DNA of 64,000 nt from Candidatus Pacearchaeota archaeon (GTDB lineage: Archaea > Nanobdellota > Nanobdellia > Pacearchaeales > GW2011-AR1): the NCBI GenBank assembly GCA_016866995.1, contig VGKQ01000001.1, positions 16,194 through 80,193 of the forward strand, read 5' to 3'. Shown here in pieces: positions 27,261-56,536 of the stretch; positions within the stretch are counted from its first letter, which is position 1; the number at the start of each line of letters is the position of its first letter. A model generated the notes under the pieces. It did no database searches. It saw only the letters and a program-made list of their open reading frames with translations, and was not told the origin of the DNA. The position numbers were made by a program, and so were the translations under genes.

Positions 27261-27414
27261 TATTTTAAAAAATAATAATAGAAAATATTAAGATGACTGA
27301 AATAAAACTGCAAGAATATAAAATAGCTAAAGATAATAAAACTGATAATAGCATAAATATAAAATATAATAACTTCTTGTTTTATTTAATTAAATTCTCT
27401 TTGCCAATATTAAG

Positions 27415-28071
27415 ATGACAGAAATAAATGGCGAGACAGCCCTTGAAGTCTGGAAAAAAGCTCTTAAACTTTTAATAGAGCAGGGAACAGATTATGAAGA
27501 CAGAAGAAACAGGATATGCCGCGAGTATCTTAACTTGATTCTTACAATTGAAGACACAAAAAATGTTGACAAGCCAGTAGAAGTTTTAAACAGCTTTGGA
27601 AAATGGGTTTATCCTCCAATTGAAGAGCTTAAAGCATTTTTCCTAGGAAAAAAAGAAGCGCCTGGATATTATTATCATTACGGAGACAGAGCATTCAATC
27701 CCGCATGGAGAAACCAGGTTGATGATTATATTATTCCTCTTCTCAAGTCAAATCCCACAACAAAAAGGGCAATAATTATATTTTACAATCCAAAAATTGA
27801 TTCATATGTCAACAGAAAAGAAATTCCTGGCCTGATTATGGTTAATTTTAATCTGAGAAAAAATAAGCTTCATGTTACATCAATAATAAGGAGCAATGAC
27901 ATGTTTCACGGCTGGCCCGGAAATGTCTGCCAGATAAACATGCTGCAGGAATACATTGCAAAACAAGTCGGATGCCAGGCTGGGAAGATAGTCACAATTT
28001 CCGTCGCTGCCCACATATTTGACGACCAGTTTGAAGACATAGAAAAAGTTATAGCAATGAAAGAAAAATAA
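27415..28071 (+). CDS. Thymidylate synthase (ThyA)-family protein, short archaeal form; the catalytic Cys is not evident
   Basis: AIIIFYNP aligns with (iivsaWNP), and IRSNDMFHGWPGNV aligns with (qRSCDvfLGlPFNI). The segment aligning with the PCH motif reads PGLIMVNF. Confidence 0.5.
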   Translation: MTEINGETALEVWKKALKLLIEQGTDYEDRRNRICREYLNLILTIEDTKNVDKPVEVLNSFGKWVYPPIEELKAFFLGKKEAPGYYYHYGDRAFNPAWRNQVDDYIIPLLKSNPTTKRAIIIFYNPKIDSYVNRKEIPGLIMVNFNLRKNKLHVTSIIRSNDMFHGWPGNVCQINMLQEYIAKQVGCQAGKIVTISVAAHIFDDQFEDIEKVIAMKEK

Positions 28072-53740: not shown

Positions 53741-54127
53741 CTATTCAAAAAACTGGGAAAATCTCTTTCCTTTTTCTTTCGCAAGCTCGAGAGAAACAAG
53801 AAAATTTTTCCCACTATTAATTAATTCAGAAGGAGAAAGAAAAAACCACCCTTCTCTGTTAAATCTCACAGCTATAACAGGCTCAAGCCCGAATATCTCA
53901 GAGAATATCATAAATTCTTCTATCTGTTTTTTTGTTATATACTTGCTTCTTTTCTTGCTTGCCTTGCACTCAACACAATATTTTTTCCCAATTTTCCCAG
54001 CAATCAAGTCGCATGATGTATTATCCATAACTCCAGAGCCAGCTACTCGAACAGCCCTGAAAGAGTTATCTATAAACATAGCATAAAGCTCGCGTTCAGC
54101 ATTCGCCCCTTTTTCCTTGTTACTCAT
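53741..54127 (-). CDS. hjc: Holliday junction resolvase Hjc
   Basis: GANAERELYAMFIDNSFRAVRVAGSG...CDLIAGKIGKKYCVECKASKK carries the archaeal Hjc nuclease motifs (E, D, E-x-K). Confidence 0.8.
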   Translation of the reverse strand: MSNKEKGANAERELYAMFIDNSFRAVRVAGSGVMDNTSCDLIAGKIGKKYCVECKASKKRSKYITKKQIEEFMIFSEIFGLEPVIAVRFNREGWFFLSPSELINSGKNFLVSLELAKEKGKRFSQFFE

Positions 54128-54180
54128 AAATAAGTTTAGAATTAATAGTTTTTAATACTTTTTAATAAAGAAAAGTTAAA

Positions 54181-54558
54181 TTAGCCTCTTGTATCGGTTG
54201 TTTCTTCTTTTCTTCCTATTTGGCTGCAAGAATTCTCCAGAAAAAATATTACCTTCCTTTTTTTATCGTGTATTCTAAGACATGTATAATAACCTGTATA
54301 AAAATTTAACTCATACTTATCCGGAGATAAATTCTCCAATCCAAGATATTCGGCGCTTTGTACGGGCCTTAATCTAACTGCTACTGGCGGGTCTTTTCTC
54401 GTGAGAGAAATTGTAACATCCATTAAGAAGGGGTCTTCAACACTCCCACCACCCCTCAATCTAATCGGTAGTTCATCCAGAGCCTCCCTAGCAATTTTTT
54501 CCAAATTTTCATCAAAGACTCTTATATCTTCACGTAATTTTAAACTTTCAATTTGCAT
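54181..54558 (-). CDS. Hypothetical protein (125 aa), GC-elevated
   Basis: ORF only. Its promoter region shares the 26-nt repeat that flanks the adjacent TA pair. Confidence 0.3.
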   Translation of the reverse strand: MQIESLKLREDIRVFDENLEKIAREALDELPIRLRGGGSVEDPFLMDVTISLTRKDPPVAVRLRPVQSAEYLGLENLSPDKYELNFYTGYYTCLRIHDKKRKVIFFLENSCSQIGRKEETTDTRG

Positions 54559-54622
54559 TTCATTCCTATCAGAACTCTCTTTGCCTATCCCCCCTCAGTA
54601 TTTTCACTTTTATAAACCTTTC

Positions 54623-54648
54623 TTTTACCCCTCATAAAAAGTAGCTTA
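54623..54648 (+). repeat. Left copy of an imperfect 26-nt direct repeat (ttttacccctcataaaaagtagctta)
   Basis: It matches 55369-55394 at 23 of 26 positions; the two copies bracket the toxin-antitoxin pair. Confidence 0.7.
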
Positions 54649-54674
54649 ATCTCCTTTCTCTTTATTTCCCATTT

Positions 54675-55073
54675 TCAGCTTTTATATCCAAAAACTTTAT
54701 CATAATCTTTATGACTAAAGATATCCATAATAAATGTAATTATTTCTACTTGATTTCCATTTATTGTATAAACTAATCTCCATCTATCAGCAAGTTCAAT
54801 TCTCCAGACATTTTCAGCTTCATATTTTTTATCATATTTTTGTGGAATTCTAAATTTTGAAACTTGGTCTCCTGCAAAAGGATTTATTTTCAATAATTCT
54901 TTGATTCTGTTTATGCTCCTTAACAATGTTTGGTGAAAAGAGCTTTCAACTCCTTTTGATTTTTCCTCTCCAACAATTTTATTCAGTTCATCATAAACCT
55001 TTTCAGCTTCTTCTGATAATTTTACAACTACCTCTTTTCCATGATACATATTATATCTCTCTTGCCTTTTCAA
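54675..55073 (-). CDS. RelE/ParE-superfamily toxin-like protein
   Basis: The C-terminal ...NVWRIELADRWRLVYTINGNQVEIITFIMDIFSHKDY resembles the RelE/ParE core (RIIY...V.il.ighRKdvY). It overlaps the upstream small gene by 23 nt. Confidence 0.45.
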   Translation of the reverse strand: MKRQERYNMYHGKEVVVKLSEEAEKVYDELNKIVGEEKSKGVESSFHQTLLRSINRIKELLKINPFAGDQVSKFRIPQKYDKKYEAENVWRIELADRWRLVYTINGNQVEIITFIMDIFSHKDYDKVFGYKS

Positions 55074-55323
55074 TAGCCCTTTTTAATTTTTTTGAGGGAT
55101 TGTAAATCCATAATACGCCCTTATGCCCATCTATAATCATGCCTTTTTCTTCCAAATAAACGAGAACTAAATTAAGAGTTTGGTGCATAATTTTTACAGG
55201 TAATCTTCTCTTAATCTCTTCTCTATCAATAGCCAAGTCTGCTTCTTTCAAAACTTTTTCAATCATCAACACAGTCTTCAAACTTGGATAGTGAATTATC
55301 TTCATATGTTTATATATTTCCAT
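55051..55323 (-). CDS. Putative antitoxin / small wHTH protein (90 aa)
   Basis: It lies upstream of, and overlaps, the RelE-like ORF. ...LNLVLVYLEEKGMIIDGHKGVLWIY is wHTH-like. Confidence 0.35.
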   Translation of the reverse strand: MEIYKHMKIIHYPSLKTVLMIEKVLKEADLAIDREEIKRRLPVKIMHQTLNLVLVYLEEKGMIIDGHKGVLWIYNPSKKLKRAIEKAREI

Positions 55324-55368
55324 ATTAATCTATATATAAACTTATATATAAATCTTTCTATTTTCATA

Positions 55369-55420
55369 TTTTACTCCTGACAAAAAGTAGCTTAGTTTTT
55401 TATATTCAAGCTACTTTTTG
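55369..55420 (+). repeat. Right copy of the 26-nt direct repeat (55369-55394), overlapping a 13-bp-stem inverted repeat (caaaaagtagctt ... aagctactttttg)
   Basis: The palindrome arms are at 55381-55393 and 55408-55420 with a 14-nt loop. The element sits 46-97 nt upstream of the antitoxin start. Confidence 0.7.
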
Positions 55421-55494
55421 TTATTATAAATAAAGAAAACCCCAATTAACCCCAATAAATTATTTATTTAATATAATCATAAAATTTTTGAAAA

Positions 55495-56247
55495 ATGACA
55501 GAAGAAATCAAAAAAGGAATGAAAGTTGAAATTTTAACAAGAGAAAAGAAAAATATTACAGGAATAGTTGAAGAAATAGGAACAAAAGAAAGCGAGAAGG
55601 GAAAAATGGTTCTTCTAAAAACAGGAGAAGTTGGAAGAGTCCAGAAAATTATAGATGATAAAAAGAAAGCAGAAAGCGAGGCAGAAAAACTGATAAAAAA
55701 AGGTGAAAATTATCAGAGAGAATTCAAATCAGAAGCATTATGGAGCTTAAATTATACAAACCAGCAGATTGCAGAAAGCAAGTCAAATGACTTGCACACA
55801 CACAAGCACAAGGCATCTAAGGTTATAATTGCTCGTTCAATTGTAGCTTTATTAAACTCACAGGGAGGAAATCTAATAATCGGAGTTAAGGAAAAAAAGA
55901 ACGAGAAAGGAGAGTTTGAGATAGTTGGAATAGAAAAAGATTTGGAGAAATTAAAAGCACAAGGCAAGGACAACTCGCAGGATGGATACAAGAGAATGAT
56001 TATAGATGACATTATCAGGGCATATTTCCCGTTTAAAATTTACAATAATCTTAATGATTATATTAAGTTCACCTTCGAGGAAATCAATAACAAACTTGTC
56101 TGCAACATAAAAGTCCAGCCAAGCAGAAGCAGGATTTTTCTGAACTTAGAGGGCAGAAAAATCTTCATGATTAGGACAGAAACAGAAACCCGCCAGATAC
56201 AAGATGAAGAGCTTGTAGATTACTGCATGAGAAGATTTTTGAGCTAG
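55495..56247 (+). CDS. AlbA_2 / Schlafen-like divergent-AAA DNA-binding domain protein
   Basis: ...EFKSEALWSLNY...KVIIARSIVALLNSQGGNLIIGVKE... matches the AlbA_2 (putative DNA-binding) core. Confidence 0.5.
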   Translation: MTEEIKKGMKVEILTREKKNITGIVEEIGTKESEKGKMVLLKTGEVGRVQKIIDDKKKAESEAEKLIKKGENYQREFKSEALWSLNYTNQQIAESKSNDLHTHKHKASKVIIARSIVALLNSQGGNLIIGVKEKKNEKGEFEIVGIEKDLEKLKAQGKDNSQDGYKRMIIDDIIRAYFPFKIYNNLNDYIKFTFEEINNKLVCNIKVQPSRSRIFLNLEGRKIFMIRTETETRQIQDEELVDYCMRRFLS

Positions 56248-56368
56248 TTCAAAAATCTTAATTATTTCCCATAACCCAAATATAAAATTAAAATAACTAA
56301 AACTAAATTTTGCAAAATAATTCCCTTAATGTTATATGACATTAATTACAGATAAGAACTAATACAAT

Positions 56369-56536
56369 TTACAAGTCTCTTGCCTGCAGTGTTCTTCTTC
56401 CATTTGCCTTTGCCCTCTCGCTCGCCTCTTTAAGCAAGTTTTCAACTTTCTTATTCAGAGCATCCACAACTTCAGCAGCTACATTCAACTCAGGAACAGC
56501 CTCTTTTATCTTGCTTTTTATGATTAAATCTGTCAT
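56369..56536 (-). CDS. Archaeal histone (HMf-family histone fold, 55 aa)
   Basis: Hand translation gives MTDLIIKSKIKEAVPELNVAAEVVDALNKKVENLLKEASERAKANGRRTLQARDL. This aligns to HMfB ...[53 protein letters not shown]. Confidence 0.55.
   Translation of the reverse strand: MTDLIIKSKIKEAVPELNVAAEVVDALNKKVENLLKEASERAKANGRRTLQARDL

Follow-up and report, generated by a model that had tools for sequence, protein, structure and literature searches.

A predicted toxin-antitoxin cassette of DPANN archaea, probably relocated next to the Holliday-junction resolvase gene of a Pacearchaeota archaeon

The window analyzed here, a stretch of 64,000 nucleotides from Candidatus Pacearchaeota archaeon (contig VGKQ01000001.1, positions 16,194 to 80,193 of the forward strand), contains a predicted toxin-antitoxin (TA) gene pair close to the gene for the Holliday-junction resolvase Hjc, and this pair is bracketed by two direct copies of a 26-nt repeat. 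Comparison with related loci indicates that the TA cassette was probably relocated to its place beside Hjc and that the repeats are two copies, left by the insertion, of an older promoter region of this site. The left copy (box_L, TTTTACCCCTCATAAAAAGTAGCTTA, 54623..54648) and the right copy (box_R, TTTTACTCCTGACAAAAAGTAGCTTA, 55369..55394), which the repeat finder lists as family D5, are identical at 23 of 26 positions and flank the genes of the putative toxin (54675..55049) and antitoxin (55051..55323), both encoded on the minus strand; reading of the sequence and the repeat finder confirm the initial annotation in these points. Box_L begins 26 nt past the toxin stop codon and 6 nt upstream of the TATA box now preceding the orphan open reading frame (ORF) ORF125, and box_R, just beyond the conserved promoter of the cassette, is separated from the antitoxin ATG by 45 nt.

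Two close relatives make the arrangement readable. In locus L026 (Hjc 81%, AlbA_2 protein 76% identical), the AlbA_2 gene is divergent from Hjc with 112 nt between them, and the site carries neither the cassette nor ORF125. The order is AlbA_2 (minus strand), a single TAAGCTACTTTTTATGAGGGGT box with a TATA element, and Hjc; the complete box, TAAGCTACTTTTTATGAGGGGTGAAAG, is followed by GGAAAGGTTTTATAAAG and then by the Hjc ATG. Box_L shares 25 of 26 positions with this single box (the first 22 are all the same) and continues into the same TATA region. The BRE/TATA element (BRE, B recognition element) AAAGGTTTATAAAAG (54607..54621, minus strand) corresponds by orthology to the promoter of Hjc in L026, and in the window it precedes ORF125. 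Box_R aligns with the AlbA_2-side sequence of L026 and is orthologous to the same single box. In the other relative, L023 (toxin 90%, Hjc 85% identical), the toxin stop codon is located 5 nt before the Hjc ATG. The window carries a 22-nt stub of an Hjc 5' end (ATGGGAAATAAAGAGAAAGGAG, reading MGNKEKG; 54651..54672, minus strand), of which a 20-mer is shared with the Hjc starts of relatives: in the window this 20-mer, AATGGGAAATAAAGAGAAAGGAG, comes after the toxin stop, and in L023, L050 and L058 it is found exactly where Hjc starts. Within the window it is present in the stub only and differs from the start of the window's own Hjc, and the stub appears to mark an old cassette-Hjc junction. Read on the gene strand, the window thus consists of AlbA_2 (minus strand), the inverted repeat with box_R, the cassette, the Hjc stub, box_L, the former Hjc TATA box, ORF125 and Hjc. 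The empty site of L026, the junction of L023 and the stub together imply that the window joins an L023-type to an L026-type arrangement. The two boxes are, as far as these alignments go, the parental copies of one older AlbA_2/Hjc intergenic element and not parts of the cassette. A syntenic comparison had been proposed as a check of the initial annotation, and it yielded both the single-copy empty site and the donor-type junction.

The distribution of the box points in the same direction. The 26-nt box and its palindrome are absent from the flanks of about 70 other cassette copies, which rules the box out as a cassette feature, and exact matches among 165 fetched loci were found only in two lineages with AlbA_2 beside Hjc. 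A search for the repeat elsewhere, likewise proposed earlier, showed that the 64 kb contain three copies of the core box AAAAAGTAGCTTA with up to one mismatch, two direct and one inverted, all of them at this locus. An exhaustive scan for direct pairs with at least 23 of 26 identical positions within 1.5 kb returned two pairs in the whole window; the other one (27281-27306, GAAAATATTAAGATGACTGAAATAAA, and 27403-27428, GCCAATATTAAGATGACAGAAATAAA) lies within and at the border of the intergenic stretch that precedes ORF 27415-28071. The 26-nt repeat is real and locus-specific and is not a general promoter consensus. Its continuation past 26 nt, GAAAG-TTTATA, is generic (BRE/TATA-like) and occurs five times in the window, always on the minus strand.

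Flank duplications recur at other copies of the cassette. The 400 nt upstream of the antitoxin gene were compared with the 400 nt downstream of the toxin gene in 65 loci; with three more loci that have no flank repeat, about 68 loci were examined. Direct matches were obtained for L147 (100 bits, 69 nt), L128 (82 bits, 47 nt), L144 (62 bits, 39 nt), L127 (45 bits, about 50 nt), L124 (36 bits, 19-22 nt) and L110 (32.5 bits, 27 nt). The top four loci exceed the maxima of both controls, 28.8 bits for inverted and 32.5 bits for mismatched-locus comparisons. The duplications in these six other species are 19-69 nt long, 84-100% identical and different in sequence at each locus. Their geometry is that of the window: at least 39 nt separate the upstream copy from the ATG, which places it just beyond the conserved promoter, and the downstream copy follows the toxin stop at a distance of 0-26 nt. 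In L128, L144 and L127, this downstream copy forms the genuine 3' end of a neighbor gene, and in L124 and L110 the genuine 5' end of one; its upstream counterpart is a stub in all five. A duplication of its target therefore seems to bracket the cassette in about one locus in ten. The initial annotation had considered a mobile TA cassette, and L026, L023, the stub and the duplications at other loci support such a cassette if mobile is taken to mean that a unit was relocated and its target duplicated. Note that the 69-nt duplication of L147 (851-919 and 1645-1713) contains a minus-strand ORF of 17 codons (MEGKVRKIKLSEWFV[R/G]E), perhaps a small gene or the end of one; three of the four in-frame differences between its copies are synonymous. 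A synonymous bias in the stubs was considered as proof of a foreign donor and dropped, because a functional copy gathers mostly synonymous changes under either model.

How might the cassette have arrived? A segment consisting of the box, the cassette and the first 22 nt of Hjc would have been joined to a segment consisting of the box, the Hjc TATA box, ORF125 and Hjc, with a source arrangement in which the toxin stop directly precedes Hjc, as in L023. The likely route would be a homology-assisted insertion, in which either a circular intermediate recombined with the target by a single crossover in the box or replication switched templates. Box_R and its inverted partner still flank a TATA-like element facing AlbA_2, and box_L lies before the former Hjc promoter, which now precedes ORF125. 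Campbell-type single crossover, or homology-facilitated illegitimate recombination, produces the structure A-H-X-H-B, where H is a short shared homology. The structure seen here, with a variable H and one H restoring the neighbor gene, fits the crossover of a circular H-X molecule or a template switch via H; the variable repeats and the lack of conserved ends make it unfit for a transposase, an integron or an integrase. As in Campbell-type integration, one copy restores the neighbor gene and the other is a stub, whereas the homologies are short here (19-69 nt) and the process is not known from DPANN archaea. We infer this route, as we infer DNA binding by the antitoxin and the activity of the toxin discussed below.

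Several points weigh against a relocation. Only one empty-site relative (L026) and one donor-type relative (L023) were found, and the contig of L023 is cut within the toxin gene, so that its upstream side, where AlbA_2 and the box would be expected, is unseen. The import may have been either the cassette segment or the segment with ORF125 and Hjc. Neither a circle nor an excised cassette was observed, the islet has no recombinase gene, and about 90% of the cassette loci have no flank duplication. Synonymous divergence between cassette copies is saturated (dS 0.8-2), which means that moves are old or rare and that the distribution may be largely vertical. Finally, the BLAST score of the window repeat (32.5 bits) equals that of the best mismatched-locus control; the case for the window therefore rests on position and shared geometry, on the uniqueness of the repeat in the window and on the comparisons with L026 and L023.

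Box_R contains the first arm of a perfect inverted repeat (arms 55380-55393 and 55408-55421, span 55380..55421; I20 of the repeat finder) with arms of 14 nt that are 100% complementary and a 14-nt loop, AGTTTTTTATATTC, that is TATA-like on the AlbA_2 strand. Folded as single-stranded DNA, it reaches -12.2 kcal/mol (z = -5.6 versus shuffled sequence). The palindrome noticed earlier as one of 13 bp is real but slightly longer, with 14 nt per arm. In L026, a weaker inverted repeat of 7 bp (AAAGTAG/CTACTTT) flanks the AlbA_2 TATA box. This suggests the inverted repeat as a candidate operator of the AlbA_2/Hjc divergent promoter, the comparison comprising two lineages only. A short tandem repeat (CCCCAATTAA / CCCCAATAAA, at about 55441-55460, plus strand) lies between the inverted repeat and the AlbA_2 start, in a stretch of roughly 75 nt that has no counterpart in L026.

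There is some chance, although we regard it as the smaller one, that the box with the inverted repeat is a working AlbA_2/Hjc operator, perhaps recognized by the DUF2196-AlbA_2 protein itself, and that box_L keeps ORF125 in the regulon. The repeat would then have been retained for regulation and would not be a neutral scar, which is compatible with the insertion history. The box is kept at 25 of 26 positions between the window and L026 although AlbA_2 (76%), Hjc (81%) and the rest of the intergenic region have diverged; the inverted arms flank an AlbA_2-facing TATA-like element in both lineages and are perfect over 14 bp in the window, and the limitation of the box to the two lineages with AlbA_2 beside Hjc agrees with this function as well. 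However, two lineages make weak footprinting, box_L is a lone half-site, other TATA-like sequences of the window are nearer to the AlbA_2 ATG than the inverted repeat, which is 74 nt away, and DNA binding by the AlbA_2 domain is an assumption from the family name. Much less credible is the proposal of the initial annotation that repeats and palindrome form an antitoxin operator shared by the TA operon and ORF125. Both copies do lie upstream of a gene-strand TATA box (16 nt and 6 nt off), and a DNA-binding winged helix is predicted for the antitoxin; nevertheless, the box is missing from all other cassettes examined (about 70 loci with 45-90% protein identity), these cassettes conserve a different palindrome in their core promoter, and L026 has the box at a site without an antitoxin gene or TA pair, all of which contradicts the proposal.

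A role of the repeats as att-type cores for a site-specific recombinase is equally improbable, and so is one as termini of a transposon or of a miniature inverted-repeat transposable element (MITE), in which 54635-54648 and 55408-55421, for instance, would be the terminal inverted repeats around the cassette. The direct repeats bracket the insert like attL and attR, an inverted pair is present too, and an integrase-like ORF, recognized by eye, occurs in the same hotspot of L031. Still, the islet between the histone-fold gene hist55 and Hjc encodes neither an integrase nor a transposase, repeat sequence and length vary per locus (19-69 nt), unlike a recombinase core or a fixed target duplication, the cassette ends of different loci share neither a terminal inverted repeat nor an attC-like element, the box is unrepeated elsewhere in the window, and no copy of the toxin was found in viral contigs. 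Specific elements were rejected on the same grounds: a MITE with the termini just mentioned (no target duplication, no other copies, no conservation elsewhere), an insertion sequence, MITE or transposon in general (no transposase, no conserved termini, duplications of 19-69 nt, a single copy in the window), an integron gene cassette (no conserved attC, unrelated sequence past the toxin stop) and an integrase-mediated island (no integrase between hist55 and Hjc, repeats differing per locus). Least credible of all is that the repeat arose by chance in AT-rich intergenic DNA or reflects a promoter consensus that is generic there: the generic continuation GAAAG-TTTATA with its five occurrences and the control-level BLAST score of the 26-mer would fit it, whereas the confinement of the core box to this place in 64 kb, the mere two pairs of such quality within 1.5 kb and the same box at the orthologous site of L026 argue against it. 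An origin of the boxes as parental copies joined by the insertion of the cassette is thus the reading that we prefer.

The cassette itself encodes a predicted type II-like system. The toxin gene most likely starts at ATG 55049, as the gene callers and every homologue have it, and the product therefore has 124 aa rather than the 132 aa given previously; a single nucleotide then separates the gene from the antitoxin stop, so that the overlap assumed earlier is absent. The AlphaFold (AF2) model of the toxin (mean predicted local distance difference test score, pLDDT, 79.7; low confidence at the C-terminus) shows the element order E-H-H-E-E-E-E and agrees with the compact RelE/ParE fold, which is characterized by an N-terminal strand, a helical hairpin and a three-stranded antiparallel sheet. 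Among its top 50 Foldseek matches in the PDB are almost exclusively RelE, ParE, YoeB, HigB and YafQ toxins (best E 2.6e-5; probability 1.00 for the best 25 or so). The earlier assignment as RelE/ParE-like toxin is therefore borne out by the predicted fold and the structure comparison, along with the DNA-binding-type partner encoded upstream.

At the sequence level, the toxin stays below every threshold of the curated models compared (Pfam ParE_toxin, ParE_like and YoeB_toxin, 17-18.6 bits versus cut-offs of 23-27; TIGR02116, 19.4 versus 51.8; TIGR02385, 15.8 versus 27.9). These sub-threshold scores (ParE_like, ParE_toxin, YoeB, RelE) point in the same direction as the fold. Profile searches against PDB sequences gave only marginal YoeB/RelE matches for the toxin and none for the antitoxin, which made the fold comparison necessary, and PADLOC and PHROGs scans of the pair returned noise-level or weak RelE-like matches only. 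In the wider family, the toxin has 529 relatives at E <= 0.001 in a library of 50%-identity representatives, and 14 of 43 sampled family members match Pfam ParE_toxin at E <= 0.01 (best E 5e-6). The near-invariant Arg91 aligns with Arg65 of YoeB (52% probability in a profile alignment), and His113, Tyr116 and Tyr122, all invariant or nearly so, lie in the low-confidence C-terminus of the model. The catalytic residues of YoeB are Glu46, Arg65, His83 and Tyr84. The conserved Arg/His/Tyr pattern leans towards an RNase-type toxin, which would act on ribosome-bound mRNA (RelE/YoeB-like), rather than a gyrase-targeting (ParE-like) one.

The antitoxin (90 aa) has no Pfam, NCBIfam or PDB sequence match. 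Its model (pLDDT 77.5) finds mainly winged-helix structures with weak E-values of 0.03-0.1, which makes this a prediction of moderate confidence, and ends in a low-confidence C-terminal tail (residues 73-90); this predicted layout of winged helix-turn-helix and tail is the usual one for a DNA-binding antitoxin. With its winged-helix model and no match to a curated family, it is not a partner of the Phd/YefM type as in the YefM-YoeB (Txe-Axe) family. The antitoxin gene is located directly upstream of the toxin gene in 61 of 62 GTDB species loci (in the remaining one the contig end cuts the locus) and in all other fetched toxin-bearing loci, with a spacing of -1 to +40 nt. As in type II systems, adjacent co-oriented small genes are thus kept paired across genomes. 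Furthermore, the toxin gene is disrupted or absent in 10 of 73 loci (L111, L121, L127, L131, L141, L145, L153, L157, L160 and L165, with stops, frameshifts, truncation or absence), and in nine of these ten the antitoxin gene is intact; the reverse was never seen. These counts come from metagenome-assembled genomes, in which sequencing and assembly errors are possible. L165 is an orphan antitoxin, with the toxin absent. Such one-sided loss, of the toxin and never of the antitoxin alone, is what one would expect if the two are indeed toxin and antidote. We conclude that the pair is predicted to consist of a RelE/ParE-fold toxin and a winged-helix antitoxin of type II-like organization.

The cassette carries its own promoter, a probable operator included (55324..55358, minus strand), with a BRE-like GAAAGA, TTTATATATAAGTTTATATA (TATA box and the palindrome TATATAA-GT-TTATATA), 9 nt and the ATG. 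The motif GAAAGA-TTTATATATAA-nn-TTATATA, followed by about 9 nt before the antitoxin ATG, was found in 50 of 57 loci, with 90-100% identity in its core columns. The first TTTATATA is positioned as the TATA box of a leaderless transcript, as implied by its spacing to the ATG, and the second motif half forms the palindrome TATATAA-nn-TTATATA between TATA box and start. This is the position where an archaeal repressor would act. Hence it is this promoter palindrome, and not the 26-nt box, that is the likely operator of the antitoxin. A dimer of the antitoxin would bind the palindrome between the TATA box and the leaderless start, making this an autoregulated type II system, and the C-terminal tail of the antitoxin would neutralize a ribosome-dependent RNase-type toxin. 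Conservation at the DNA level extends from about 38 nt before the ATG to the toxin stop, and the sequence past the stop is unrelated between loci; these bounds define a cassette unit of about 0.7 kb.

Homologues of the two proteins form hundreds of clusters at the 90% identity level and share 70-84% identity with the query. Among GTDB representative genomes, the toxin is present in 62 species of Pacearchaeota, Woesearchaeota and Nanoarchaeota, with distant copies (41-48% identity) in Micrarchaeota and Iainarchaeota; no relatives were found in IMG/VR viral contigs. The gene pair thus appears to be DPANN-restricted. Between cassette copies, amino acid identity is 70-90%, dS is saturated as mentioned and dN/dS is 0.04-0.2 (about 0.1), so that the similarity reflects long-term purifying selection and not recent transfer. 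Indeed, the pair is at least as conserved as the adjoining housekeeping genes in shared neighborhoods (e.g., toxin 81-84% versus radical-SAM 62-63%; toxin 90% versus Hjc 85%). In about 10 species, the cassette occupies differing slots of the same backbone: in the window and in L100, L106, L112, L118, L126, L131, L139, L150 and L156 it lies within the LysRS-to-p239 neighborhood, in a slot that differs per species, and in relatives with 82-84% identity (L019, L022, L100) it is located between the radical-SAM gene and p239. Such slot changes within a shared neighborhood hint at an ancestral home region with local hopping. Contexts are unrelated even at 80-82% antitoxin identity, and the closest antitoxin homologues (P0122, P0123, P0130) are found in unrelated contexts without flank repeats. 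The differing slots and contexts agree with a repeated relocation of the cassette.

The pair resembles YefM-YoeB, RelBE and ParDE in the small upstream antitoxin gene tightly coupled to the toxin gene, in the RelE/ParE fold, in the promoter palindrome and in the decay of the toxin before the antitoxin gene. In addition, an arginine of the toxin aligns with Arg65 of YoeB, and a conserved His/Tyr is found near the C-terminus. In contrast to these systems, the toxin has some 40 additional residues and a lengthened helical hairpin, its sequence scores are sub-threshold, and the antitoxin is a predicted winged helix rather than a Phd/YefM, ribbon-helix-helix (RHH) or DinJ protein. The best structural matches to the toxin model are PfiT/PfiA (PDB 9w3a) and PaaA2-ParE2 (5czf), with E-values of 2.6e-5 to 5e-4, query-normalized TM-scores of 0.53-0.57 and 13-14% sequence identity. 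TA pairs are usually patchy in distribution and fast-evolving, whereas the present pair is DPANN-restricted and far more conserved. TA cassettes of superintegrons are discrete, promoter-bearing and mobile, but need an attC site and the integron integrase; the cassette described here is likewise a discrete promoter-bearing unit, yet it has no conserved 3' element and its flanks are duplicated target. The fused MNT-HEPN protein (cls.004259) has been described as an unusually conserved TA-like DPANN module, often in housekeeping context (Makarova et al. 2019, PMC6393860). Conservation and housekeeping context are shared with our pair, although the protein families are unrelated and our pair is a two-gene cassette with its own promoter and signs of relocation. 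In our literature search, neither this TA family nor flank duplications of this type turned up. The pair represents a novel form of RelE/ParE type II system, restricted to DPANN archaea, with an antitoxin that has no match among curated families.

The surroundings of the cassette were assembled independently in seven metagenome contigs. Across 77 Hjc-anchored metagenome loci, the conserved backbone comprises LysRS, (HD), the histone-fold gene, Hjc, the radical-SAM gene and p239. In these loci, the gap between the histone-fold gene and Hjc varies from ~45 nt to 2.4 kb and contains unrelated accessory genes. In the window, this gap between Hjc (53741..54127, minus strand) and hist55 (56369-56536, on the far side of the islet from Hjc) is filled with ORF125, the cassette and AlbA_2, forming an islet of 2.2 kb (54128..56368). 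As these genes fill a variable gap inside a conserved hist55-Hjc backbone, the earlier view of the region as an accessory islet was correct. The gap is hypervariable, with variants noted in L025, L028, L031, L035-L037, L044, L048, L053, L068 and L078; by eye, with no profile search behind the names, a HicA/HicB-like pair (L053), a further RelE-like pair (L025), secreted proteins and an integrase-like ORF beside an NYN-like ORF (L031) were recognized.

ORF125 (54181..54558, minus strand), now positioned behind the former Hjc promoter, has no matches in Pfam, NCBIfam, PADLOC or PHROGs, and its sole match among 5.8 billion proteins is ORF125 itself, i.e., it has no homologue outside its own genome. 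It had been described as GC-elevated; its GC content is indeed raised, but only modestly (0.38-0.39 versus about 0.27-0.36 nearby). On the other side of the cassette and divergent from it, the AlbA_2 gene (55495..56247, plus strand) encodes an N-terminal DUF2196/YwbE-like domain fused to a Schlafen-type AlbA_2 domain, with a weak PHROGs match to a DNA helicase family. The inverted repeat, like the box, was found among the fetched loci only at sites that carry this gene. An Rfam scan of the window detected one tRNA only, distant from the locus, and a scan for sigma-70 promoters and terminators was uninformative, the host being an archaeon.

The empty site, the donor-type junction and the stub turn an unexplained repeat into a readable insertion history, and the comparison defines a DPANN-restricted TA family together with a candidate operator. 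In Pacearchaeota and Woesearchaeota, this pair is as conserved as its housekeeping neighbors or more so, and yet it shifts as a 0.7-kb unit. If the duplications reflect short-homology insertion, they would provide a handle on how DNA moves between uncultured reduced genomes and would suggest that TA cassettes can move without a dedicated recombinase. A further-reaching, tentative and rather doubtful idea is that the cassette is a minimal recombinase-less mobile unit of DPANN archaea, spread between related genomes by single-crossover or template-switch insertion at short homologies of 19-69 nt: it would carry a piece of its previous neighbor and duplicate its target, and the strong purifying selection would stem from an acquired role that is beneficial to the host or addictive. 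If so, the TA cassette would act as its own mobile element.

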